Part shown: positions 30,143 through 44,619 of the stretch, one piece after another | Numbering within the stretch: the stretch's first letter is position 1 | Layout of the letters: every line of letters starts with the position of its first letter | Origin: Escherichia coli 042 | GTDB taxonomy: Bacteria; Pseudomonadota; Gammaproteobacteria; Enterobacterales; Enterobacteriaceae | Length of the DNA stretch: 64,000 nucleotides | Strand: one strand, 5' to 3' | Assembly: GCF_000027125.1 (NCBI RefSeq) | Contig: NC_017626.1 | The notes under the pieces: generated by a model | The model's input: only the letters and a program-made list of their open reading frames with translations | Database searches by the model: none | Told to the model about the DNA's origin: nothing | Translations under genes and position numbers: made by a program

Positions 30143-31048
30143 CTATATTTCCAGACACCTGTTATCACTTAACCCATTACTGGCTTGCTGCCGTAGATAT
30201 TCCCGTGGCGAGCGATAACCCAGTGCACTATGCGGATGCCATTCGTTATAATGCTCGAACGCCTCTGCAAGGTTCTTTGCTGCCGTTAACCCGTCTGGTT
30301 TGGGCATGACACTGATGTAGTCACGCTTTATCGTTTTCACGAAGCTCTCTGCTATGCCGTTACTCTCCGGACTCCGCACCGCCGTGTTCTTCGGTTCAGG
30401 CCCCAACATCCGGGCAAACTGCCGTGTTTCATTAGCCCGGTAGCATGAACCATTATCCGTCAGCCACTCTACTGGAGACGCCGGAAGCTCGTTGCCGAAA
30501 CGGCGTTCCACCGCTCCCAGCATGACGTCCTGTACTGTTTCACTGTTGAAGCCGCCCGTAGTGACCGCCCAGTGCAGTGCCTCACGGTCACAGCAGTCCA
30601 GCGCGAACGTGACTCGCAGTTTTTCTCCGTTATCACAGCGGAACTCGAACCCGTCAGAGCACCATCGCTGATTACTTTCTTTCACAGCCACTCTGCCGGT
30701 ATGTGCCCGTTTCGATGGCGGTACAGCGGGTTTTCGCTCAAGCAACAGCGCATTCTGGCGCATGATCCGGTAAATACGTTTGGCATTGATCGCAGGCATA
30801 CCATCAAGTTCGGCCTGTCTACGAAGCAGCGCCCATACCCGACGATAACCATATGTGGGCAGCTCTCCGATAACATGGTGTATACGGAGAAGCACATCCG
30901 TATCATCTGAGTGACGGCTGCGGCGACCATCTTTCCAGTCATCGGTTCGTCTGAGAATGACGTGCAACTGCGCACGCGACACCCGGAGACAACGGCTGAC
31001 TAAGCTTACTCCCCATCCCCGGGCAATAAGGGCGCGTGCGCTATCCAC
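30143..31048 (-). CDS. insD: IS2 transposase OrfB (InsD)
   Basis: 301-aa integrase-core transposase. Confidence 0.9.
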
Positions 31049-31416
31049 TTTTTTGCACGCCCATATTCAACGGCTTCTTTAAGGAGTTCATTTTCCATCG
31101 TTTTTTTGCCGAGCAGGCGCTGGAGTTCTTTAATCTGCTTCATGGCGGCAGCAAGTTCAGAGGCAGGAACGACCTGTTCTCCTGCGGCCACAGCAGTAAG
31201 ACTTCCCTCCTGGTATTGCTTGCGCCAGAGAAATAACTGGCTGGCTGCCACACCGTGTTGCCGGGCAACAAGGGAGACTGTCATTCCCGGTTCAAAACTC
31301 TGCTGAACAATAGCGATCTTTTCCTGTGTAGTACGCCGTCTGCGTTTCTCCGGTCCTAAGACATCAATCATCTGCTCTCCAATGACTAGTCTAAAAACTA
31401 GTATTAAGACTATCAC
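31006..31416 (-). CDS. insC: IS2 OrfA (InsC)
   Basis: Helix-turn-helix ...[47 protein letters not shown]... Confidence 0.9.
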
Positions 31417-31854: not shown

Positions 31855-32020
31855 AACCACGGAAACAGCGCTGGATATTCTGATTACGTGGCTGCAGGAC
31901 AATATCGACTGCGAATCGGGAATTATCTTCGACAACGATGAGGATAAAACAGGTTCGGCAGCACTGTTGCGCTGTATCGAACAGGCCAGGGAGGGTATCC
32001 GTACCCTGCGCCAACAGTAA
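31855..32020 (+). CDS. hypothetical small protein (55 aa)
   Basis: MKSLTTETALDILITWLQDNIDCESGIIFDNDEDKTGSAALLRCIEQAREGIRTLRQQ; start chosen within track ORF 31439..32020. Confidence 0.35.
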
Positions 32021-32929
32021 CTTTTGCACCAGAACCAGTGAAGATCACTCACCCGATTTCACTTCCCTGACGTCAGCCTGAACACGGCTGGCGTTTTCAT
32101 TTATAAACAGAAAGGAAAAATGATGATGTCAGATACCACACTCTCCCGCCCGGAGGTGGTCAGCGGGCATACGGACGTTATCTATTCCACCTCAGTCTGC
32201 CACATTCTGGCTGTACGAAAGAGTACACTGTTGCCAATCGACACAATTATCCGGCATCAAGTAAGCGATATCAGTTAACCGATATAGATGGGGAAGATGC
32301 TTTTATCCGGATTGGTTCTATCGCGATGGTGCGAGTACCACTTGATGCAATGGCGCCTGTCGAGGAAGATGACGAGTAACAGAGCTCGGTATCTCAATCA
32401 GGACCTGATTGTCCTGGTTCGATGCCGAAAACCAGTGATTTTTCGTGTTGGTATCTGTGTTGGTATAGGATGGTGTTGTTTATTATTAACAATTTTAAAT
32501 CATGAGGTTAAATCGCATGTTTGAGTCCGGCCTTCGCACCACATCGTATGCAAATCGAGTCGCTCAAGGGCGGCTTTTTTTGTACCTGTGTTTTCACTAC
32601 TTTGTTTGCATGTAACGCTGATAATCTAAGAACTTCGGAAGCCCCATTTCCATCAATGATGTTCATTCATCATCCTGAAAATTAAGTAGATATAAAACTT
32701 CATTGCCTTGGTCTAATGGCACAGAAATAGATTGCATTTGGCGAGTGGCATTCTTAGTGCGTCGTTGTTTAGTCATGAAACGATGCGTAAAATTGCTGAT
32801 TTTATGTGTCAAAGTCCCGCAACCGGAGATGGCCTTACTTCAATGATCAACCACTATTGACGTATCCTTTTAATATCTTGATTCAATTCAGCAGGTTATC
32901 GTCCAAAGTACAGCGAAGAGAGAGAAAAG

Positions 32930-35821
32930 ATGATTGGTACAACACCTTATCATGCGAAATATTTTGCGCATGAACTTTCCATTCTTCATTCAAACAATGG
33001 GGTGGACCGTCTGTCTCAATCGCTGTTTGATGCAAGCGTAGATCTAAACCCTCATCAAATTGAGGCGGCTCTTTTTGCTATCGAAAATCCGCTAAGCAAA
33101 GGTGTTGTGCTTGCCGATGAAGTTGGTTTGGGTAAAACCATTGAAGCTGGACTAGTGCTTTGCCAGTTGTGGGCTGAAAGAAAACGTAAACTGTTGATCA
33201 TTTGTCCTGCTTCACTGCGTCGCCAATGGGCGAGCGAGTTACAGGAAAAGTTCAATCTACCTTCTCAGGTGTTGGACGCGAAAATGTATAGCCAGCTTCA
33301 AAAAGAAGGGATCCATAATCCCTTAAATAATAAATCGATCACTATCATGTCATACCACTATGCTGCTCGGTTAGAAGAGAAATTGGTGGCTGAAATGTGG
33401 GATCTGGTTGTTATCGACGAAGCCCATAAACTGCGTAATGCTCATCGAGAAAGCAACAAAATGGGGCAAGCGTTAAAGCGTGCGCTTGATGGGCGGAAGA
33501 AATTACTACTGACCGCAACGCCTTTACAGAACTCGTTGATGGAACTGTATGGCATGTCGACGCTTATAGATGAACATACCTTCGGCGAAGTTAAAGCGTT
33601 CAGAAAGCAATATATGCAGGCAGATAGCGATATTGCGGAGTTGAAGGGGCGATTGTCGCGTTTTATCAAACGAACTCTACGCAAGAATGTGCTGGAGTAT
33701 ATCAAGTATACAGAACGTAAAGCGATCACTATTCCTTTCTATCCGAGCGAACAGGAGCAGGATCTTTATGAACGCGTACAAAAATTGCTTGAACGTGAGG
33801 ATAGCTATGCCTTACCAAAACGACACCGGCATCTGACGGGGCTTATACTCAGAAAACTACTTTCCTCAAGTACGAAAGCCGTATTGAATAACTTGCAGAT
33901 CCTTAAGACTCGTTTAGAAAGGTTAAAGCTGGAAGGTATCGTTGAAGATGATATGGACATCATCCAACAGATCATAATGGATGATGATCTTGAAGATGAC
34001 ATCGTTGAAGATGCCGAATCAGTAGCGCCAGATACAGAGTGCAAATCTGTGGATTCAGATGCGCTTCAGGCAGAAATCAATGAGCTGGAATCACTCATTG
34101 TCAAAGCAGAACAGATTGGCACTGATACCAAATCAAAAGAGTTGCTTTCTGGCCTGGAGCAAGGTTTTGCACAGCTTGCCGAAATGGGGGCTGCAAAAAA
34201 AGTCATCATCTTCACGGAGTCGATGCGAACTCAACAGTACCTTGCACATTTTCTGGAAAACAATGGCTACCAGGGAAAAGTAGTAACCTTTAGTGGCACA
34301 AACAATACACCGCAGGCAAACAAGATCTACCAGCAATGGCGCGAGGAATATCAGGGATCTTCTCGTATTACCGGGTCGGCGCAAATTGATAAACGCTCGG
34401 CTTTGATCGACCACTTCAAAGATCATGCTGAAATCATGATAGCTACAGAAGCTGCAGCTGAAGGGGTGAACCTGCAATTTTGTTCGCTACTGATCAATTA
34501 CGATTTCCCCTGGAACCCACAACGCATTGAACAGCGTATTGGACGTTGTCACCGATACGGGCAAAAATTTGATGTGGTTGTTATTAACTTCCTCAATCAG
34601 CGAAACCAGGCCGATCAACGCGTTCTTGAACTCTTAACTGAAAAGTTCAGCCTGTTTGATGGCGTGTTTGGCGCATCGGATAGTGTGCTTGGCAGCATAG
34701 AAAATGGTGTGGATTTTGAAAAAAGGATCCAGTCAATTTATGAGTCATGCCGTACCCCCGAGGAGATAGAGCTGGCTTTTGAAAGGTTGCAGAAAGAGCT
34801 GGAAGATGAAATCAATCTCAAGATGCAGAAGACGCAAGAACAGTTGCTTGAGCATTTTGATGAAGATATTCACGATATCCTTAAAATAAGGCTTGATGAA
34901 GCTCGGGAGCGCCTGGATAAAGTCGGTCGTTGGTTTTGGGCCGTGACCTGTCAGCAGCTCAAACAATATGCTGATTTTGATCATGAGCATCATCGTTTCA
35001 CTTTACGTGAATCAGTCAATGAACTGCCTGTCGGGCAGTACCAGCTGTTGCGCAAAGATGGCAGGCAAAATAGTGCGTTACAAATGCAGGATCACCACAG
35101 TTTTGCATATCGGATCAATCATCCGCTGGGTGAGTACGTCATTGAGGGAGCCAAAGCCCAGGAGACGAAAACAGCTGAAGTCATCTTCGATTACAGTAAC
35201 CACACAACGAAAGTTTCGGTGGCTGAGCAGCTGAAAGGGCAATCAGGATGGTTAACACTAAATTTGCTTACTGTTGATGCGTTTAACAGGCAGCAATTTT
35301 TAGTCTTTACCGCGAAAACTGACAACGGACGTGTGGTAGATGGTGAAGCTTGTAAACGTCTGTTCAACTTGTCTGCAATAACCAACGAAAAGCTGGATAA
35401 TTCGGCAAGTTTAGATGCATTACCTGATGACTTGATCTTACTCAAGAACAGGCAAATTGACGCCAGGCTTGCAGAAGTTTTGGAGCAGAACTATGTCCTT
35501 TTTGAAGCGGAAAGAGATAAGCTGGAAAAATGGGCTGAAGACATGATCTTTGCGGCGGAAGAAGCATTACGCGATACCAAAATGCAAATCAAGTCGTTGA
35601 AGCGAGAAGCCAGGCTGGCGCAATCGATCGAAGAACAAAAGCAAAACCAGGAAAAGCTTAAGCTACTGGAACGGCAGCAGAAGCGTCAACGTATGGAAAT
35701 TTTTGACATTGAAGATGAGATCGCCGACAAGAGGGATGAACTCATCAGTGCCCTTGAAGAGCGGATGAAGCAAAAGACGGATATCACCGAGCTGTTTACC
35801 ATCCGCTGGAAAGTTATTTAA
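32930..35821 (+). CDS. SNF2-family ATPase, RapA/HepA-like, short N-terminus
   Basis: 963 aa. Motif I LADEVGLGKTIEAG, motif II VVIDEAHKLRN, motif III LLLTATPLQN, motif VI QRIGRCHRYGQ; C-terminal coiled-coil-like region. Several blocks resemble RapA; RapA N-terminal domains absent. Confidence 0.85.
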   Translation: MIGTTPYHAKYFAHELSILHSNNGVDRLSQSLFDASVDLNPHQIEAALFAIENPLSKGVVLADEVGLGKTIEAGLVLCQLWAERKRKLLIICPASLRRQWASELQEKFNLPSQVLDAKMYSQLQKEGIHNPLNNKSITIMSYHYAARLEEKLVAEMWDLVVIDEAHKLRNAHRESNKMGQALKRALDGRKKLLLTATPLQNSLMELYGMSTLIDEHTFGEVKAFRKQYMQADSDIAELKGRLSRFIKRTLRKNVLEYIKYTERKAITIPFYPSEQEQDLYERVQKLLEREDSYALPKRHRHLTGLILRKLLSSSTKAVLNNLQILKTRLERLKLEGIVEDDMDIIQQIIMDDDLEDDIVEDAESVAPDTECKSVDSDALQAEINELESLIVKAEQIGTDTKSKELLSGLEQGFAQLAEMGAAKKVIIFTESMRTQQYLAHFLENNGYQGKVVTFSGTNNTPQANKIYQQWREEYQGSSRITGSAQIDKRSALIDHFKDHAEIMIATEAAAEGVNLQFCSLLINYDFPWNPQRIEQRIGRCHRYGQKFDVVVINFLNQRNQADQRVLELLTEKFSLFDGVFGASDSVLGSIENGVDFEKRIQSIYESCRTPEEIELAFERLQKELEDEINLKMQKTQEQLLEHFDEDIHDILKIRLDEARERLDKVGRWFWAVTCQQLKQYADFDHEHHRFTLRESVNELPVGQYQLLRKDGRQNSALQMQDHHSFAYRINHPLGEYVIEGAKAQETKTAEVIFDYSNHTTKVSVAEQLKGQSGWLTLNLLTVDAFNRQQFLVFTAKTDNGRVVDGEACKRLFNLSAITNEKLDNSASLDALPDDLILLKNRQIDARLAEVLEQNYVLFEAERDKLEKWAEDMIFAAEEALRDTKMQIKSLKREARLAQSIEEQKQNQEKLKLLERQQKRQRMEIFDIEDEIADKRDELISALEERMKQKTDITELFTIRWKVI

Positions 35822-35826
35822 TTGAT

Positions 35827-38800
35827 TTGAAAGAGAAAATAATGAGTAAGTACAACGAATTAGTTAAGAAGTTAAAAGAAATTTTTCAGATTGATCGACC
35901 AGAACTGGATTTCGGTATTTATCGTATTTTAAATGCACGTGCTGATGAAATTAACGACTATCTGGATAATAAGCTGAAGGCCAAAATCCAGTCTGCGCTG
36001 GCGGATGCAGGAAATGCCAATAAATCAGAATTAGAACATCAGTTGCAACTGACAATAAAAGCGGCAACTGATGCGGGTGTAGACCCTGCTGATAGCCCAA
36101 AAGTACAGGAGCTTAAAAAGCAACTGGCGGCTATGGCATCCGGAGCAAATGAGCATGAAAATGCAGTATTTTCCCATCTGCTCACTTTCTTTTCGCGTTA
36201 TTATGACAACGGCGATTTTATCAGCAAACGCCGTTATAAAGGTAATACCTACGCCATCCCCTATTCTGGCGAAGAAGTGATGTTGCACTGGGCAAATAAG
36301 GACCAGTACTACATTAAAAGCGGTGAAAACTTCGCTAATTATTCGTTCAAATTAGAAGACGGTCGTAAAGTTAGCTTTAAATTGCTCGCAGCGGACACAG
36401 CAAAAGATAACCGTAAAGATAATGAATTAGATCGCTGCTTTGTACTTATTGAGCCGCATGTTCGTACCAAAATTGATGAAGAAGGCGATGAGTACGAACA
36501 AGAATATAAGCCAGTAGAAGTGGTGAAAACTTCATCTGTGGTTGACGGTAAACTCGTTGAAACAGAAGAGTTAGTTATTCATTTCGAATATAAGGCAATG
36601 AAAAAGGGCACTAAGCAGGATGCTTTAGTGCAGTCCGCTATTTCAAAAATTCTGGCTGATAAAACAGTACAACAGCATTGGGTTGATCTTGCTAAACGTG
36701 CGCCAACCGAAAAAAATCCGTCACGTACAGAGTTGGAGCGTCATTTAACAACATATACCCAACGTAATACGGCTGACTACTTTATTCATAAAGATCTCGG
36801 TGGCTTTTTAACGAACGAACTGGATTTTTATATTAAAAATGAAGTAATGAATCTCGATAATGTGCAAAATGCAGAAGTGTTTGCTAATATTGAGAAACAA
36901 CTGCGCATGATTCAATGTTTGCGTGCTGTTGCGCTGGAACTCATCACTTTTTTGGCACAGATTGAGAATTTCCAAAAGAAACTTTGGACTAAGAAAAAGT
37001 TTGTTGTAGAGACAAACTATATATTTACCGTAGATAAGTTACCAGAGGAATTATATTCAATTGTCATTAAGAATGATGCCCAATGGGAACAATGGAAGCA
37101 ATTAGGTTTCCTCAGCGATTTTTCGGGAGATAGAGAGAAAACTCTGAAAGAAAAACAAGGGTTAATTGTTGATACTTCATTATTTGATTCCAAGTTCAAA
37201 GAGAAATTTATCAACAATATCGCTGATGTTGACACAAATGTTTCCGCTTATTTATATAGTGGAGATAATTATCAAGTGTTAAATCTTATTAAAATAAAAT
37301 ATAATAATAAAGTTGATGGTATATATATAGATCCACCTTATAATACCAATGCGTCTGAGATTTTATACAAAAACGGTTATAAGGATAGCTCATGGTGTTC
37401 TTTAATGAGTTCTCGTTTAGAGATAAGTAAATCCTTATTAAAAGAAAATGCAGCTACTTGTACAACTATTGATGAGTATGAAGTTGCTAATTTGGAATTA
37501 TTGCTAAAAGAAACGTTTACAGGATATCAAATCAGACCTGTTGTTATTGAATATAACCATCGAGGACGAGTTAAAAGTAATTTCGCTATTACCCATGAAT
37601 ATGCTTTATGGACCTTACCAGAAAATAAAGATGTAATATCGAGACAAGTTGAAATATCAGAAGAAATTAGGCGTAACTTGCGTAGAACTGGTTCAGGTTC
37701 TACTCGTGCCGAATCTGAAAGTCAATTTTATGGCATCGAAGTTGACAATAATACCCTCGAGATTGTCAATGTAACCGAAGCTTTACCAAGTTTAGATTCA
37801 GCAATTCCTACGCATCTAAATAAAGATACAACAATGGTATGGCCAGTAGATGACCAAGGGGTTGAGCGGCGCTGGTACTATGGGCGAGATCGTGTTATTC
37901 GCGAAGCTAAAGAAGGTACTGTTTGGGCGAAAAGAATAAAAGGTGAGATACAAATACATTACAGACAAGCAGGAAAACCTAAAATGCGTAAATCTGTATG
38001 GATTGGTCCAAAGCTTGACGCAAGTACCTATGGTTCGGAACTATTAAATAGTTTGTTTAACGTGACTCAGATTAATTTTTCTTTTCCAAAAAGTATTTAT
38101 GCGGTTAAGGAATGTTTAGAGTCGCTTAGTAATTCGAAGTATGCTCATTTCTTAGACTATTTTGCTGGCTCTGGTACTACAGGGCATGCAGTGGTAGATA
38201 TGAATAGGGATGATAATGGTTTTCGAAAATTTAGCTTGGTCGAACAAGGTGAATATTTTTATTCTGTTACCTTGCCTAGAGTAAAAAAAGCTATTTTTAC
38301 AACTGATTGGAAGTATGGAAAAGCACTAAGCTGTAATCCAGTTGAGCAGACATTAATAAAATATATTAAAATTGAGAGTTTTGAGGATACTCTTAACAAT
38401 ATAGCACTGAAACGTACTGAAACAACAAAGGATCTTTTCGACGATCTTAAAGAAATTCGAGAGGATTATGTTCTTAACTATATGCTTGAAACAGAAAGCA
38501 AAGGCTCACTACTCAATACTGATAATTTCAAAAAACCATTTAACTACGAAATGGATGTTACAACGGATTCCGCAGGTGCTACTGAGCGTAAGAACATCGA
38601 TTTAGTTGAAACTTTCAACTATCTCATTGGCTTACATGTGAAATCCATCGAATCCAATATCGAACGTGGCTATGTGCGTGTTGAAGGAACGCTACCAACT
38701 GGCGAGCGTACCCTTATTCTGTGGCGCGATTGCGACAAGATCGGCTATGAAGAATTGAATAAATATGCCAACAGATTCGATTTATATGCAAAAGAAAATA

Positions 38801-38946
38801 CGTTCGACGTTATCTATATCAATGGCGATCATAACTTACCTACCGCCTTTACCGTTGATGAAGAAGACGGCGAGATTGTTCGTAGCCTGAAAATCCGCCA
38901 GATCGAACCTGAATTCTTGAACCTGATGTTTGCGGAGGAGGTTTAA
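35827..38946 (+). CDS. DNA methyltransferase, N6-adenine/N4-cytosine (beta-class order), Type III Mod-like with N-terminal extension
   Basis: 1039 aa. Motif IV DPPY (IYIDPPYNT, about 37330) precedes motif I FxGxG (DYFAGSGTTG, about 38160), with a roughly 290-aa variable region between; about 500 aa of unrecognised N-terminal sequence. 6-nt gap after SNF2 gene. Confidence 0.8.
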   Translation: MKEKIMSKYNELVKKLKEIFQIDRPELDFGIYRILNARADEINDYLDNKLKAKIQSALADAGNANKSELEHQLQLTIKAATDAGVDPADSPKVQELKKQLAAMASGANEHENAVFSHLLTFFSRYYDNGDFISKRRYKGNTYAIPYSGEEVMLHWANKDQYYIKSGENFANYSFKLEDGRKVSFKLLAADTAKDNRKDNELDRCFVLIEPHVRTKIDEEGDEYEQEYKPVEVVKTSSVVDGKLVETEELVIHFEYKAMKKGTKQDALVQSAISKILADKTVQQHWVDLAKRAPTEKNPSRTELERHLTTYTQRNTADYFIHKDLGGFLTNELDFYIKNEVMNLDNVQNAEVFANIEKQLRMIQCLRAVALELITFLAQIENFQKKLWTKKKFVVETNYIFTVDKLPEELYSIVIKNDAQWEQWKQLGFLSDFSGDREKTLKEKQGLIVDTSLFDSKFKEKFINNIADVDTNVSAYLYSGDNYQVLNLIKIKYNNKVDGIYIDPPYNTNASEILYKNGYKDSSWCSLMSSRLEISKSLLKENAATCTTIDEYEVANLELLLKETFTGYQIRPVVIEYNHRGRVKSNFAITHEYALWTLPENKDVISRQVEISEEIRRNLRRTGSGSTRAESESQFYGIEVDNNTLEIVNVTEALPSLDSAIPTHLNKDTTMVWPVDDQGVERRWYYGRDRVIREAKEGTVWAKRIKGEIQIHYRQAGKPKMRKSVWIGPKLDASTYGSELLNSLFNVTQINFSFPKSIYAVKECLESLSNSKYAHFLDYFAGSGTTGHAVVDMNRDDNGFRKFSLVEQGEYFYSVTLPRVKKAIFTTDWKYGKALSCNPVEQTLIKYIKIESFEDTLNNIALKRTETTKDLFDDLKEIREDYVLNYMLETESKGSLLNTDNFKKPFNYEMDVTTDSAGATERKNIDLVETFNYLIGLHVKSIESNIERGYVRVEGTLPTGERTLILWRDCDKIGYEELNKYANRFDLYAKENTFDVIYINGDHNLPTAFTVDEEDGEIVRSLKIRQIEPEFLNLMFAEEV

Positions 38947-38948
38947 GA

Positions 38949-41900
38949 ATGGCTAAAAAACCGACCACCGGTAAAGCAGTTAAAAAAGAGACTAACAGCA
39001 AGCTGAGCTTTCATAAGCAGTTGGTTTTAAACCGCTTTATGTTCCATTTTTTTAAAGATGGCACATTGCAAGGTTTGAAGAATCGGTTAGGCGAGGATCG
39101 CTTTGAAGGCATCCATGAAGATGGCCAAAGCTTATTCTTCCATGAGCTGAGTAACTATTTATTCGAGGTCGATCTTATCGATCTCGATGAACTGCGTCGT
39201 TACGATCTCAATATCGTGCAGCACTGGCAGCAGATAACCGAGCACCGTAATCGTAAAGAAGACACAGTGCTGAACATGAAATATTTTCAGTACTTGTCGC
39301 TTCTGTTTACCGAGATCTACCTGGACTGGTACTTCAACCGTAAACAGCAATTACTCGATGGGCTAAATAACGAGCTGGCAGCATACAATGCTGAAAATGA
39401 TAAAACAGCAAAAGACCGGGCTAATCAGTTCAAATCATACGTTCTGGATGATTTGAATAAACTGGCATACTGGAACGCTACTGGTTCTGGTAAGACACTG
39501 CTATTACATGTCAATATTTTGCAATATTTACATTATTTCCAGAACGGTAATAGCCATCATTACCCGGATAAAATCATCCTGCTTACGCCGGATGAACGCC
39601 TATCGAAGCAACATTTAGATGAACTGGAAAACTCAGGATTTACCCAATACCAGTTATTCGATAAGAGTAAATCCGCGCCATTTAAAGGCACGATTGAAGT
39701 TATTGATATCAATAAACTTGCCGATGAAATGGGTGACAAAACTGTTGCCGTTGAGGCATTTGAAGGCAACAATCTGGTCTTGATTGATGAAGGGCATAAA
39801 GGCACAGGAAGTGCTGCTGGTGCCTGGATGCGCCGTCGTGACAAATTAACGCGTGACGGATTTGCGTTTGAATATTCAGCAACTTTTGGCCAGGCAGTGG
39901 CCGGTGGCAATAATGTTGAGGCAGTTGAAACAGAAATTCAGAAGAAAAAAGCAAAGCTGCTTTTTGAAACAACTGCCTTAGGTAAACTGAGCGAAGAACA
40001 GTTAGCGCAAATAGCATTAACCAGCGAAGAACAACGTGATGCGCGTATTCAGGCGACACGAGAAGTCTATGGGAAATCGATTCTGTTCGATTACTCCTAT
40101 AAATTCTTCTATGAGGATGGTTATGGTAAAGAATCACTGATTCTTAACCTTAATCCTGAAGAGGATAAAAAAGATGAGCGTCGGTATGAGTATTTTACCG
40201 CGTGTTTGCTCAGCTTTTATCAGCAACAATATTTATTCAATAAGAATAAAGAAAAATTAAATGAATTTAATATCGAAAAACCGCTATGGGTTTTTGTCGG
40301 TAACACCGTAAGTGGTGAAGATTCAGACATTCACGCAGTACTGCGTTTTTTAGCATGGTTTTTAAATCATGAATCGCAGGCAAAATCGTGGATTAAAGAT
40401 CTCATTGAAAATAAAGCGCGAATTCTTGATACCAAAGAGCGTAACATTTTTGAAAATCGCTTTACCGCACTAATGAACGGCCCGGAAGATATCTACGCAG
40501 ATATTCTTTCTCGTTTGTTTAACACCACTCACTCAGGTCAGAGACTGCGAGTTCTGAATTTAATAGGCAGTAAAGGTGAACTGGCATTACAGGTTGGTGA
40601 GGCCGAACCGTTTGGTCTTATCAATATTGGTGATGCACCGTCTCTTTACAAAATGTGTGAAGAGGATACGACATTTGATTATCAGAGAGATGATTTTGCG
40701 AAGTCACTCTTTCATACGTTAAATGACAAAGACTCGCAACTACATATTTTGATCGGCTCGCGAAAATTTACTGAAGGCTGGAGCAGTTGGCGCGTCTCAA
40801 CGATGGGATTGCTCAATATGGGCCGTGGAGAAGGTTCACAGATCATTCAGTTATTTGGTCGTGGCGTTCGCCTTAAAGGTCGCAATTATTCTTTGAAACG
40901 CAGTACACCCGGTGAGCGTCCGAAAGGGTTGCATCTGGAAAAATTAGAGACACTGAATGTATTCGGTGTACGTGCCGATTACATGGCAACCTTTAAACAA
41001 TACCTGGAAGATGAAGGGATTACGCCAAGTGACGAGATCCTTGAGCTGAATTTTGAAACTCGGCCAAATATGCCAGCAACCAGGCTTAAAACACTTAAGC
41101 TTAAAGATGGTTATAAAGATAATCAAAGACTCGGCTTTAAACGTGTCTATTTTCCCGAATTGTATGAAGTTCCTGCTGATTTTCAGGGGAAAATTAAGCA
41201 GCCGCATATTAAGCTGGACCTATACCCGAAACTTGAGTCGATTGATACCAGCAGAAAAGGGGACAATACTCCGGTTAACGTGCGTAATGAAGCGAAGTTA
41301 GATTATAAAATCATTAGTGCGTTTGATTTTGATCGGCTTTATCTCGCCATTCAGAATTATAAACTACAACGCGGCTGGTCAAATTTACGTGTGGATAAAC
41401 AACGTTTGATCGACTTTTGTACCGGTAAGACAAAGATCGGAAATAGTTGGTATACCCTTTTGATTCCAGCTTCAGAGCTTGAGATTAAGCAATATGCAGA
41501 TATTGCTAAGCAGGAAGATATTATGCTTCGTCTGCTGACTGATTATACTGATCGCTTTTACAACACATTGAAAAATGCTTATGAAGGTCAGTTTTATGAA
41601 GTCACGCAGGTGAAAGAAGATGATCCTGGTATGATCAAAATGTACCATTTCGAGATCGAAGAAACTGATGATGGGTTGGCATATGCCAGTCGGCTGGAAC
41701 AATTACAACAATTGGTCATCGACGGCGAAATCGGTAAAGCAAAATCCTGGAGTGCATCCGGGATGGTTGCTATTACCTTTGATAAACATCTCTATTATCC
41801 ACTTCTTTCGATTGAAAAAAATGCCAACATACCGCTAAAAATGCGACCGGCAGCACTGGGTGCATCAAGTGAGATTACTTTTGTCCATGATCTTCAGTCT

Positions 41901-42329
41901 TTTGTTGATTCGACAAAAGGGCAGAAAATTATTGGTGATAAAAGTTTATATCTGCTAAGAAATGCGGATTCTAAAAATAGAGGCCTGGGCTTTGCTACTG
42001 CGGGTAATTTTTATCCGGATTTCTTATTGTGGTTAGTCGATGATAAAAGTGGTAAACAATGGTTAAGTCTTATTGATCCAAAAGGCATCCGCAATCTTAA
42101 TCTTGATGATCCAAAGTTCGGATTATATAAAGAAATCAAGAATCTTGAACATAAATTATCGGATGATAACTTATCATTAAGTGCATTTATTGTTTCTGAA
42201 ACTTGTTATGTTGACTTAGTAAACGTACCTGATTCAAAAGAGAATCTGGAAGCCAGAAATGTGCTTTTTATTGAGGATACTGGCTCATTGTATCTGGAGA
42301 AATTATTCAGTAAGATGGTTAGCGAGTAA
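38949..42329 (+). CDS. SF2 helicase with C-terminal PD-(D/E)xK-like motif, Type III Res-like
   Basis: 1126 aa. Walker A NATGSGKT, DExH LIDEGHKG, SAT, QLFGRGVRLKG; C-terminal YPDFLLWLVDDKSGKQWLSLIDPKG. Start 2 nt after methyltransferase stop. Confidence 0.8.
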   Translation: MAKKPTTGKAVKKETNSKLSFHKQLVLNRFMFHFFKDGTLQGLKNRLGEDRFEGIHEDGQSLFFHELSNYLFEVDLIDLDELRRYDLNIVQHWQQITEHRNRKEDTVLNMKYFQYLSLLFTEIYLDWYFNRKQQLLDGLNNELAAYNAENDKTAKDRANQFKSYVLDDLNKLAYWNATGSGKTLLLHVNILQYLHYFQNGNSHHYPDKIILLTPDERLSKQHLDELENSGFTQYQLFDKSKSAPFKGTIEVIDINKLADEMGDKTVAVEAFEGNNLVLIDEGHKGTGSAAGAWMRRRDKLTRDGFAFEYSATFGQAVAGGNNVEAVETEIQKKKAKLLFETTALGKLSEEQLAQIALTSEEQRDARIQATREVYGKSILFDYSYKFFYEDGYGKESLILNLNPEEDKKDERRYEYFTACLLSFYQQQYLFNKNKEKLNEFNIEKPLWVFVGNTVSGEDSDIHAVLRFLAWFLNHESQAKSWIKDLIENKARILDTKERNIFENRFTALMNGPEDIYADILSRLFNTTHSGQRLRVLNLIGSKGELALQVGEAEPFGLINIGDAPSLYKMCEEDTTFDYQRDDFAKSLFHTLNDKDSQLHILIGSRKFTEGWSSWRVSTMGLLNMGRGEGSQIIQLFGRGVRLKGRNYSLKRSTPGERPKGLHLEKLETLNVFGVRADYMATFKQYLEDEGITPSDEILELNFETRPNMPATRLKTLKLKDGYKDNQRLGFKRVYFPELYEVPADFQGKIKQPHIKLDLYPKLESIDTSRKGDNTPVNVRNEAKLDYKIISAFDFDRLYLAIQNYKLQRGWSNLRVDKQRLIDFCTGKTKIGNSWYTLLIPASELEIKQYADIAKQEDIMLRLLTDYTDRFYNTLKNAYEGQFYEVTQVKEDDPGMIKMYHFEIEETDDGLAYASRLEQLQQLVIDGEIGKAKSWSASGMVAITFDKHLYYPLLSIEKNANIPLKMRPAALGASSEITFVHDLQSFVDSTKGQKIIGDKSLYLLRNADSKNRGLGFATAGNFYPDFLLWLVDDKSGKQWLSLIDPKGIRNLNLDDPKFGLYKEIKNLEHKLSDDNLSLSAFIVSETCYVDLVNVPDSKENLEARNVLFIEDTGSLYLEKLFSKMVSE

Positions 42330-42341
42330 ATAAATATGATT

Positions 42342-42374
42342 CTGCTCCATATCTCTGTGAGATATGGAGCAGAT
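42342..42374. terminator. hairpin between convergent genes (candidate bidirectional terminator)
   Basis: Inverted repeat CTGCTCCATATCTC / GAGATATGGAGCAG at 42342-42374, between stop of 38949..42329 (+) and stop of 42376..42678 (-). Confidence 0.55.
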
Positions 42375-42375
42375 A

Positions 42376-42678
42376 TTATCGCCAATGTGCAGGAATAATT
42401 AAGTCAAACGATTTTGCTGCATATTCAAGCATTTTTATTATTTCCCGGTGTCGTTCCTGGTCGAAAGACTGTCCATTTTTTCTACACTCTATAATCCCTT
42501 GTAATTCTTTTAGGTTAAACATATCAAGAAGATATAAATTTTTCCAGGTTGGTTGCCCGAAGAGGTTATAGACTGTTTCCGTAGCATCTCGTTCACTTGC
42601 TAATCTTTTCTCTCCTTCTATTCTTTCAAAAAATATTTCAGCTGTTTCTTTATCATCATAAGTATTTAATAATTCCAT
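42376..42678 (-). CDS. hypothetical protein (100 aa)
   Basis: AT-rich ORF convergent with the helicase gene; no family recognised. Confidence 0.4.
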   Translation of the reverse strand: MELLNTYDDKETAEIFFERIEGEKRLASERDATETVYNLFGQPTWKNLYLLDMFNLKELQGIIECRKNGQSFDQERHREIIKMLEYAAKSFDLIIPAHWR

Positions 42679-42990
42679 TATGATTTTCCTGATTAATGAA
42701 TTGATATCACGATAATTATATCATGAATAGATGTAAATTTACTATGTATATAAATTAATGTACAGTTCAACATGCTAATTATTTTTTAATTTGTAATGTC
42801 GATTGGTTAATAATTGGATTCTCTTATAATGAATATATATTTACTCTGACTAGAATATTTGTAAACGTGTTTTATATTGAGATTTTAAAATTGATTTATG
42901 GCTATGTACTCATAAATAATACTTTCGGTGTCAGAAAATACTTTATCTATTACATTTAAAATTCTAGGTGAAAGATATATAATGGTTACC

Positions 42991-43484
42991 TCACCCCCTA
43001 AAAAACTCTTTCCGATACCACTCTACAACCCCCTCAAAAGGGTAATTTTTACGCACCTGTGGCAACGCAATAATTTTTCCGTCAAAATCCCAGAATGACC
43101 TCTCAATGATCTCTCCGCCGTTTACCGCATCCAATACCAGTACCCGCATATTTTCATCCAGGCCAATCGTTCCTTTATCAAAGGCTTTATGATGTATCGC
43201 GCAAAGCGCCAGGCCATTGGGAATTTCACAAGGGCCACCATGTTGTTTCCATTTTATATGTGTCGCTTCCAGTGAGACGGTGGAGTTGCCGTAACAAATA
43301 TTAAAGCTACATATTGCGCACTGGTAGTTATAAGCGCGTAATACATGTTTGCGAAATAATGGGTCACGCTGCTTACGGATTTGCTGGAGAGCAAAAAAAG
43401 GCTCGTCAGCGATTTACTGGAAGCCATTGATATCCCTGGCAGTGAAATAATTGCGATCATGCTCGCAAATTTTCTGCGGTTCAA
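42991..43484 (-). pseudogene. HNH-nuclease-like gene, frameshifted
   Basis: Minus-strand frame ending at 42991 reads ...YNYQCAICSFNICYGNSTVSLEATHIKWKQHGGPCEIPNGLALCAIHHKAFDKGTIGL... but has no start; the ATG at 43484 is in another frame. Frames meet near the A7 run at about 43391-43399. Confidence 0.5.
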
Positions 43485-43638
43485 GCCTGCAAGCGAAGAT
43501 ATATTACCTTGATCTCATATGTTTTTTTACTTCCTGTGTGCCCTAATTGCCATGCGATGTTGCACCGACGCAAACCACCGTTTACGCCGGAGGAGTTAAA
43601 AGCGCTGATGGATGCGAATAAATCAAATTAATGAACGC

Positions 43639-44619
43639 TCACCTTTCGCGCCAAAACTGCAAAATTGCTTCTACAAACCTGTCAGAAATAATCCCTCGAC
43701 GGGCTGCCGCGCTGAAATGACTGCTTCGCAGTGCCGTCGTCCAGTTCTCCGGTGACCGGTACGCTGAACCGTAATATCCCGTGCTTAAATCGTCCGGATC
43801 TTCATCAGGCGCGTTCGTCAGTCCTCTTGCACCTTGTTGCTGGAAGTCGACGAAAATAATATTGGCTAGAACATTATTTTGATAATTGCCATAAATAGCT
43901 TCATACGCATGAGGGAAATTTTCTTTCCAGTACCAGGTGGTATCGCCGCAAAACCACGGCGCGTCAGTAATTTTATTAAGCTGAGAATGGTATTGTTTTA
44001 GATCCCTACGAAAGGCGTCAACCATATGATTAAAGTGTTGAGGGTGTGACGCGTAGTCACTGGTCATTAAGTCAAATTCGCCTTGCATCCAGCATACGCC
44101 GAGGAATTTGTTCTGCGGATTTTTTGCCAGTGCGGCTCGCGTTCTGCTGACTAAATCCTGGTATAGCGGAGTATCCGTTCCCCAACGACAAGCATCATGG
44201 CTGGCTCCGTGCCGTTCTGAATATGTCCCTTCGCTGCCCGCGGTAAAAGCCGATCCGCCACGGCAACACGGAACGATGAGAACCCCTGCATTATCAGGAA
44301 TAAAGGGCAGTAATTTCCGTGCTATATGTAGTGCCTGGCCAACGGTGCCGTACTGTGTTTGATGATTCGTTGCCAGAGGATGGTGATAACCCTGCATATC
44401 CTGAACATCGTGTGGGCAGTGAGTCAGTGGAATAATGTCGTTAAAGTGACATGACGGGCCTCCGGGATGTGTATGCGCAAATCTCGCTAATTGTTTAATT
44501 CTGGGATGAGGCGCATCTTCCTTGTCCGGTAATGGTAGTCCTTCGCCATACGCCATGGCATTAGACTGACCAGCAACGGTAAGAACATAGTAATAATCGG
44601 GCGATATTATTGCGTTCAT
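43639..44619 (-). CDS. nanS: N-acetyl-9-O-acetylneuraminate esterase NanS
   Basis: MNAIISPDYYYVLTVAGQSNAMAYGEGLPLP..., recalled as K-12 NanS (YjhS). Confidence 0.85.
   Translation of the reverse strand: MNAIISPDYYYVLTVAGQSNAMAYGEGLPLPDKEDAPHPRIKQLARFAHTHPGGPSCHFNDIIPLTHCPHDVQDMQGYHHPLATNHQTQYGTVGQALHIARKLLPFIPDNAGVLIVPCCRGGSAFTAGSEGTYSERHGASHDACRWGTDTPLYQDLVSRTRAALAKNPQNKFLGVCWMQGEFDLMTSDYASHPQHFNHMVDAFRRDLKQYHSQLNKITDAPWFCGDTTWYWKENFPHAYEAIYGNYQNNVLANIIFVDFQQQGARGLTNAPDEDPDDLSTGYYGSAYRSPENWTTALRSSHFSAAARRGIISDRFVEAILQFWRER

Follow-up and report, generated by a model that had tools for sequence, protein, structure and literature searches.

Textbook Type III restriction enzymes are two-subunit machines in which the helicase domain serves as an ATP-triggered switch for one-dimensional diffusion. 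RapA, an SNF2 ATPase, frees stalled enzyme from DNA and takes part in the recycling of RNA polymerase. SNF2 proteins also occur as partners of the class 1 DISARM, ARMADA and type 3 BREX defense systems, and we know of no established role for the SNF2 partner in any of the three. ARMADA defense is abolished by Walker A and B mutations in ArmA (PMC12458937), joint deletion of drmD and drmMI nearly abolishes the protection from phage Nami given by Serratia class 1 DISARM (10.1101/2021.12.28.474362), and ietHAS protection is abrogated by mutation of the Walker A or the DEAH box of its DrmD-like helicase, ietH (PMC13069673). Here we describe a three-gene operon of Escherichia coli 042 in which a gene for a RapA-like SNF2 ATPase (32930..35821, plus strand) is followed by those for a Type III-like Mod methyltransferase and a Type III-like Res protein. 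All coordinates refer to the window, the 64,000-nt stretch of contig NC_017626.1 that was analyzed. No published description of the arrangement of SNF2 with Type III genes was found in the literature searched, coverage of which was incomplete.

The SNF2 gene opens with ATG and encodes 963 residues (RefSeq WP_001395333.1, 'SNF2-related protein'), in which Pfam recognizes SNF2-rel_dom (residues 42–289) and Helicase_C (437–544). ATPase lobe 1 (33035..33799, residues ~36–290, plus strand), delimited by Pfam, motifs and AlphaFold2, holds the Walker A box GLGKT (66–70, with lysine K69), DEAH (163–166) and TATP (195–198), and residues K69, T70, D163, E164, H166, T197 and P198 are invariant across 62 homologues. 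The block LADEVGLGKTIEAG corresponds to residues 61–74 (nt 33110–33151) and LLIICPASLRRQW to residues 88–100. ATPase lobe 2 (34187..34699, residues ~420–590, plus strand; Pfam, AlphaFold2) holds QRIGR (535–539) within motif VI, QRIGRCHRYGQ (535–545), and here Q535, R536, R539, H541, R542 and Q545 are invariant in the same homologues. Judged by these motifs, the SNF2 protein is a catalytically intact ATPase of the RapA/DrmD/BrxHII clade. Between the lobes lies an acidic insertion (33800..34186, residues ~291–419, plus strand; AlphaFold2 and composition) with 22% Asp plus Glu, which is all-helical in the AlphaFold2 model and of low confidence at residues ~340–370. This whole-protein model was computed from the 62 homologues, with a predicted local distance difference test score (pLDDT) of 85 and a predicted template modeling score (pTM) of 0.81, and it places just three short helices ahead of the ATPase core. 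Some 65 residues precede the Walker A box, and an earlier reading of the DNA made from its letters alone (the sequence-only reading) had, with about 60 residues ahead of motif I, estimated this correctly, the Walker A lysine being K69.

Beyond lobe 2 the protein ends in a family-specific C-terminal module (34706..35818, plus strand), defined from AlphaFold2 models of the whole protein and of a fragment and comprising a helical bundle (593–676), a beta-rich domain (681–830), an antiparallel helical hairpin (833–946, nt 35426–35767, with helices 833–895 and 900–946) and a terminal strand (949–962). The separate model of residues 590–963 (pLDDT 89.6) agrees with that of the whole protein. The last 126 residues (838–963) are 44% charged and contain neither Pro nor Gly. 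The position of the two predicted long helices and the strand agrees with the charged, heptad-like stretch that the sequence-only reading had seen at 35440–35821; the charge stands, and the heptad-like tail is better described as a predicted intramolecular helical hairpin packed on the beta domain, not necessarily an oligomerizing coiled coil. Past residue ~704 no part of the protein is covered by Pfam, PADLOC or NCBIfam models, and neither PADLOC, Pfam nor AlphaFold2 revealed a nuclease or other effector domain.

The likeness to RapA from which the sequence-only reading had set out is borne out by both sequence and structure. RapA is the best sequence match in the PDB (E 1e-35), and the top four Foldseek matches are RapA entries, aligned over ~1060 columns with template modeling scores (TM-scores) of up to 0.57, whereas eukaryotic remodelers align over the core only (~560–640 columns). 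The SNF2 protein shares with RapA (PDB 6BOG, 4S20, 8T0L, 8SO8) near-identical motif blocks, namely LADEVGLGKTIEAG and the helicase motif VI region, a similar total length and a long C-terminal region with paired long helices. By BLASTP, similarity to K-12 RapA is limited to the two ATPase lobes, with 35% identity over 208 residues in lobe 1 (E 2e-25) and 34% over 76 residues in lobe 2 (E 2e-12). The RapA-type N-terminal Tudor-like domain or domains ahead of the core are missing, as had been claimed, both in the alignment and in the AlphaFold2 model: RapA residue 154 pairs with residue 39 of the SNF2 protein, K69, the Walker A lysine, has K183 as its RapA equivalent, and ~114 N-terminal RapA residues have no counterpart. 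The top Foldseek match, 8so8, is itself a RapA truncated at the N-terminus. At the other end, the C-terminal fragment also ranked RapA first in Foldseek, at a weak E of 0.11, and hhalign of a 67-sequence C-terminal profile against RapA residues 600–968 returned a probability of 0.3%; on these two values we dropped the claim of homology between the C-terminal module and the RapA C-terminus and regard the resemblance as topological only.

The gene is not an ordinary rapA, in agreement with the sequence-only reading. rapA proper is a core gene found at its own locus in 5424 of 5426 complete E. coli genomes (its K-12 neighbors being rluA and polB), whereas the SNF2 gene is accessory, mobile and part of a restriction–modification operon, which occurs in 145 of the 5426 genomes (with at least 80% of the region held) and is thus no core locus. 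The NCBIfam RapA equivalog model NF003426 yields 163.1 bits in two partial stretches, far under its cut-off of 576. Accessory distribution, sub-cut-off score and missing N-terminus together rule out rapA. Homologues on plasmids (OW968065.1, MH430881.1, MH430882.1 and CP036351.1) are labeled 'RNA polymerase-associated protein RapA' by some pipelines, probably a mis-annotation in view of their restriction–modification context.

By family-model scores the SNF2 protein stands nearest to a DrmD_b-like family and not to RapA itself. Its highest-scoring profiles are PADLOC PDLC02619 DrmD (658 bits) and NCBIfam DrmD_b (NF038318, 664.7 bits against a cut-off of 950), the latter aligning residues 31–671 with profile positions 22–658 of 868. 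The NCBIfam DrmD equivalog gives 291 bits against a cut-off of 610, and weaker PADLOC matches are BrxHI/BrxHII (251 bits), other DrmD models, HmaA (192 bits), DpdE and ZorD. As with DrmD of class 1 DISARM, the match starts near the beginning of both proteins, neither of which has a long N-terminal extension, and the gene lies beside an N6-methyladenine (m6A) methyltransferase gene in a defense locus. It differs from DrmD in its sub-cut-off score and its uncovered C-terminal 290 residues, and its partners are a Type III Mod and a Res helicase-nuclease instead of DrmMI with DrmA, DrmB and DrmC. None of DrmA, DrmB (DUF1998) and DrmC (phospholipase D) is among the genes annotated within 12–20 kb, PADLOC and Pfam find no DrmA or YprA match in the 1126-residue Res protein, and Mod belongs to PF01555 (N6_N4_Mtase) and not, as would be expected of DrmMI, to PF13659 or a PglX-like type.

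Similar considerations apply to the other described systems. In ARMADA (ArmA) and type 3 BREX (BrxHII), as here, a RapA-like SNF2 gene adjoins that of a methyltransferase acting on asymmetric sites, and a further gene for a helicase or nuclease is close by (PMC12458937, PMC12839542). BrxHII has an N-terminal Tudor domain (PMC12839542) that is lacking in the model of the SNF2 protein, the Walker A lysine of ArmA is K136 (PMC12458937) as against K69, and both systems use a PglX-like methyltransferase and a YprA helicase where the present operon has a Type III Mod and Res. Neither the YprA-family DUF1998 helicase nor the PglX-like methyltransferase of ARMADA is encoded in the operon, the third protein of which matches ResIII, DEAD and REase_III only. 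The Hma system is likewise an SNF2 helicase and methyltransferase defense operon and an insertion hotspot for other defense genes (PMC11232893). However, HmaA is an SNF2-nuclease accompanied by a DUF1156 methyltransferase and a DUF499 ATPase, and none of these is found here: the HmaA match covers the core only, the C-terminal NOV_C/DUF3883 nuclease is absent, PADLOC detects no HmaB or HmaC at the operon, and there is no DUF1156 or DUF499 partner.

The two genes that follow confirm the restriction-like operon proposed from the sequence, since both match PADLOC Type III methyltransferase and endonuclease models over their full length. Mod (35842..38946, plus strand; Pfam N6_N4_Mtase, PADLOC, PDB), an adenine methyltransferase of 1034 residues from the RefSeq start, is matched end to end by MTase_III PDLC03646 (1624 bits) and resembles the solved Type III Mods Mbo45V (7dsu), 6k0w and EcoP15I (4zcf). 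Its motifs occur in the beta-class order of a Type III Mod, DPPY at 497 ahead of FAGSG at 774, and the region between residues 601 and 740, which is the most variable (23–32% identity between taxa), is the expected target-recognition domain. An N-terminal extension of 455 residues is conserved, with 39–53% identity between E. coli and its Legionella and Desulfurispira homologues. Res (38949..42329, plus strand; Pfam ResIII and DEAD, PADLOC, motifs), of 1126 residues, is matched over its full length by REase_III PDLC03654 (2318 bits) and displays the superfamily 2 (SF2) helicase motifs GSGKT (179), DEGH (280), SAT (310) and GRGVR (637), followed by a C-terminal PD-(D/E)xK-like motif (PDF 1023 ... 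DPK 1043). These Type III Res motifs are kept in four distant taxa, one of which has E-P-H for D-P-K. At the level of sequence the Mod and Res pair thus matches the definition of a Type III restriction–modification enzyme, in an unusually large version. Like EcoP15I and EcoPI, it consists of Mod and then Res, with a beta-class Mod that has a central recognition region and a Res in which an SF2 helicase is joined to a C-terminal PD-(D/E)xK nuclease. In contrast to EcoP15I, the Mod and Res of the E. coli 042 type are much larger, Mod has its 455-residue N-terminal extension, and where EcoP15I and EcoPI have two genes, SNF2 leads here as a third. A two-component system of Mod and Res alone does not describe the locus, which is headed by this conserved SNF2 gene. 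The three genes are tightly packed, with Mod following SNF2 after 20 nt and Res following Mod after 2 nt.

The linkage to methyltransferase and nuclease genes, on which the sequence-only reading had staked its case, proves to be conserved across many phyla. Full-length SNF2 homologues of ~940–1000 residues and 35–87% identity occur in many phyla, where conjugative plasmids and islands carry the operon, and the order SNF2-Mod-Res recurs in Legionella pneumophila, Vibrio cholerae and Desulfurispira natronophila (the last with two inserted nuclease genes), as well as on IncF conjugative plasmids of Klebsiella and E. coli and IncFIB plasmids of Salmonella. A locus scan with one genome per species gave 80 loci. 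Downstream sequence extends for 7 kb or more in 51 of them, and at least 40 of the 51 contain Mod and Res. In 35, the pair is of family A (the E. coli type) or of family B, the canonical-size type (PADLOC MTase_III 03636 and REase_III 03648). A further 11 have a Mod-like or Res-like gene, nine of them in the form of a Mod-like gene followed by an open reading frame (ORF) of ~880–1020 residues; five such ORFs (from L007, L021, L035, L042 and L073) were tested and all five are of REase_III family 03647. One locus (L058) has Res family 03651 and a Mod split into two ORFs. Four different Res families are thus found with SNF2 homologues. Where SNF2 and Mod are both present they are co-directional with SNF2 first in 59 of 61 loci, and within these 59 the two genes abut or overlap in 26, are spaced by heterogeneous inserts of 0.25–2.5 kb in another 26 and lie more than 2.5 kb apart in seven. 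Homologues are essentially absent from 50,697 phage records.

Inserts between SNF2 and Mod or between Mod and Res mark the operon as an insertion hotspot (for instance L009, L011, L031, L037, L053, L063, L064, L072 and L004), and include an AbiU/AIPR-like gene of ~600 residues (four loci), PDDEXK_3 and DUF1016 genes (Desulfurispira) and IS256 with an Abi gene (Salmonella plasmids). They are heterogeneous, the largest families being confined to four loci, and we rejected them as a recurrent fourth component.

The partners of the SNF2 protein are exchangeable. A neighbor-joining tree of 69 SNF2 sequences, which was not bootstrapped, has one clade whose partners are chiefly of Res family A and a second in which family B predominates, with several switches to families B and C inside each; read from these sequences, the tree shows that Mod/Res partners were swapped repeatedly, with Res families A, B and C all involved. 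SNF2 is better conserved than its partners, E. coli and Legionella sharing 63–64% identity in SNF2 and 42% in both Mod and Res. The reverse exchange, in which the motor is displaced, is seen at three loci. In Priestia megaterium and Athalassotoga saccharophila, family A Mod and Res occur without SNF2 and the first-gene position is taken by a UvrD/GajB-like superfamily 1 helicase of ~930–980 residues with a Cys-rich tail in its C-terminal region; these two helicases are homologues (E 9e-43), and neither is related to SNF2. In Haloprofundus, an AAA ATPase gene lies immediately upstream of the family A Mod gene. The displaced-motor loci span L090 3063–12198, L092 2013–10874 and L093 2704–10880. 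Because non-homologous nucleoside triphosphatases (NTPases) fill the same operon position, a separate motor would be functionally required by these systems, and an NTPase in first-gene position appears, from such sequence comparisons, to be a functional requirement.

The anatomy and intact motifs of the SNF2 protein, the structure and mobility of its operon and its conserved and exchangeable linkage with Mod and Res having been observed, we consider it probable that the SNF2 protein is an accessory double-stranded DNA translocase or remodeler that works with Mod/Res in ATP-dependent restriction–modification. A defense or epigenetic role rather than one in RNA polymerase recycling, as the sequence-only reading had suggested, is supported, and from gene context, and by analogy with the mutant and deletion phenotypes of ARMADA, class 1 DISARM and ietHAS, we infer a physical partnership with Mod/Res, translocase activity and a need for the protein in defense. 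The Mod and Res products would form a Type III-like enzyme that combines a beta-class m6A methyltransferase with an SF2 helicase/PD-(D/E)xK nuclease, and the SNF2 motor would act with this complex, most likely in the restriction of unmodified incoming DNA. The step it serves could be the moving, loading or recycling of DNA-bound Mod/Res complexes, or the clearing of obstacles from DNA. Possible parallels are DrmD with DrmMI in class 1 DISARM, ArmA with ArmB in ARMADA and BrxHII with the methyltransferase of type 3 BREX. Freeing of a stalled enzyme in the manner of RapA is an appealing role given the slow dissociation of Type III enzymes from DNA (PMC3413136), and such a release role on Type III complexes is offered here as speculation.

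Several points weigh against a dedicated partnership of this kind. Canonical Type III enzymes function without a third subunit, which leaves SNF2 a possible regulator or an independent defense gene riding along. Unrelated genes separate SNF2 from Mod in about half of the loci, a looser coupling than a strict complex-encoding operon would show, and in five of the 51 loci the models used detected no Mod; two of these adjoin ZorA-like/IetA-like genes or Cas3. The SNF2 homologue can also stand ahead of a Type IIG gene (L086) or, as a fusion, ahead of a Type I system. The fusion (P0198, L094 3736–9723) is a protein of 1995 residues in which a UvrD-helicase/PDDEXK_1 part is joined to a full-length SNF2 family member, and its gene lies between that of a separate PDDEXK_1 protein, upstream, and a Type I hsdM-hsdS-hsdR operon that follows directly. 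N- or C-terminal extensions of 380–530 residues are seen in three further family members (P0153, P0177 and P0156).

If the gene were indeed riding along, it would encode a stand-alone defense or housekeeping helicase that merely shares defense islands, one version being a RapA paralogue that acts on RNA polymerase. RapA as the closest solved structure, the RapA annotation of homologues in some pipelines, the loci without restriction–modification genes, the variable genes often inserted between SNF2 and Mod and the precedent of single-protein SNF2 defenses such as HmaA (PMC11232893) all fit this explanation. We nevertheless hold it to be unlikely, as the SNF2 protein has no effector or nuclease domain, unlike HmaA, and no RapA N-terminal domain, 59 of 61 loci keep the same gene order and orientation, 26 with few-nt gaps or overlaps, and the linkage survives changes of Mod/Res family, with two distant phyla carrying a different helicase in the same position. 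Quite unlikely, in our judgment, is a class 1 DISARM or ARMADA-type system in degenerate or minimal form, in which SNF2 would be the DrmD or ArmA orthologue and the remainder was lost or replaced. DrmD models do give the best family matches (658 and 665 bits), starting near the beginning of both sequences, and the SNF2 gene adjoins that of an adenine methyltransferase, as in class 1 DISARM and ARMADA (PMC12458937). Yet the DrmD_b score stays under its cut-off of 950 and covers the ATPase core only (residues 31–671), no helicase, DUF1998 or phospholipase D gene is annotated outside the operon within 12–20 kb, the methyltransferase is of PF01555, unlike the PF13659/PglX-like DrmMI or ArmB (10.1101/2021.12.28.474362), and the third protein has no DrmA or YprA match. 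Because the three-gene operon is kept intact across phyla, it is not a remnant. A PADLOC call of DISARM, moreover, needs all five genes (PMC9252829), and defense-system finders would split the present locus into a Type III system and an orphan DrmD.

Closest to the accessory-motor reading is a factor on the modification side or for self-protection, which helps Mod to find and methylate host sites or evicts Res/Mod from host DNA so that self-restriction is avoided, restriction itself not depending on it. The SNF2 gene usually adjoins Mod and not Res, and RapA, as said above, frees stalled enzyme from DNA. Type III enzymes leave DNA slowly (PMC3413136), and in Serratia class 1 DISARM methylation is fuller with the whole system than with the methylases alone (10.1101/2021.12.28.474362), both of which speak for such a factor. 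ATPase mutants of ArmA, on the other hand, lose defense and not viability (PMC12458937). Self-protection shares all of the anatomy with the accessory-motor reading and differs from it solely in the step served by the motor; we rate it as rather unlikely.

A bolder view, which we put forward as a tentative and somewhat doubtful possibility, is that the Tudor-less SNF2 family defines an unnamed, widespread class of three-component Type III systems with an obligate separate motor, usually SNF2 and in some lineages a UvrD-like helicase or an AAA ATPase. The motor of such a system might evict DNA-bound Mod2Res or recycle it in the way that RapA serves RNA polymerase; alternatively, it might convert passive sliding into directed translocation. 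Were this class real, the two-subunit picture of Type III enzymes would need revision for a large fraction of systems. Independently of this view, a conserved extra SNF2 motor that is exchangeable among four or more Mod/Res families suggests a need for a second ATPase in many natural systems, and the locus ties Type III restriction to the combination of RapA-like SNF2 protein and m6A methyltransferase that recurs in class 1 DISARM, ARMADA and type 3 BREX. Small, of three genes and clonable into K-12, the E. coli operon would be a tractable system in which to study what the SNF2 partner contributes. On clinical IncF plasmids, the operon could affect both plasmid and phage traffic. On one IncF plasmid, pEC316_2 (L088), a block of helix-turn-helix (HTH) gene, SNF2, Mod and Res has psiB, psiA and a ParB/RepB/Spo0J-family partition gene within a few kb, on the other side of two insertion sequence (IS) elements; a restriction system so near the SOS-inhibition genes psiB and psiA is unusual.

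In the E. coli chromosome the operon forms a low-GC block (37–44%, against 52–57% in its surroundings). It occupies the terminal part of a CP4-type integrative island, among whose other genes are those for Ag43, an antirestriction protein, RadC and YeeU/CbtA, and is adjacent to nanS, nanM and nanC. Region 32000–43500 is 100% identical in many RefSeq chromosomes. Ahead of the SNF2 start, ~550 nt (32380–32930) hold no called gene, and no consensus promoter was found upstream of the gene; a terminator-like hairpin (32557–32576) and a fragment of an HTH-regulator pseudogene (~32266–32379) lie there. In Legionella, Vibrio and the plasmids a small HTH gene overlaps the SNF2 start instead. We rejected this gene as a core component, since it abuts SNF2 in ~7 of 76 loci, comes in two unrelated types and does not occur in the window. 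On the far side, a hairpin with a 15-bp stem (42341..42373, no strand assigned; found in the sequence) between the Res stop codon and a convergent ORF is probably a bidirectional terminator that closes the operon. The convergent ORF (42376..42678, minus strand; identified by homology in related loci), of 100 residues (RefSeq hypothetical WP_000421876.1), has 54% identity to an ORF at the same position in Vibrio cholerae (L005) and recurs in Shewanella (L010), both among the closest lineages; it is absent from all other loci compared and matches no PADLOC or NCBIfam family.

Directly downstream, RefSeq pseudogene fragments at 42991–43413 (minus strand) and 43527–43631 (plus strand), of a phosphorothioated-DNA-binding restriction endonuclease and an HNH endonuclease, suggest turnover of defense genes at the island end, and nanS (sialate O-acetylesterase) is truncated (44053–44619). 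Upstream, the region is a mosaic of mobile-element scars: just ahead of the island segment that holds the operon, an IS3-family element (30143–31416, minus strand) splits a DUF5983 gene, and at window positions 1–12000 the fecIRABCDE operon is flanked by remnants of IS1, IS3, IS66 and IS5.

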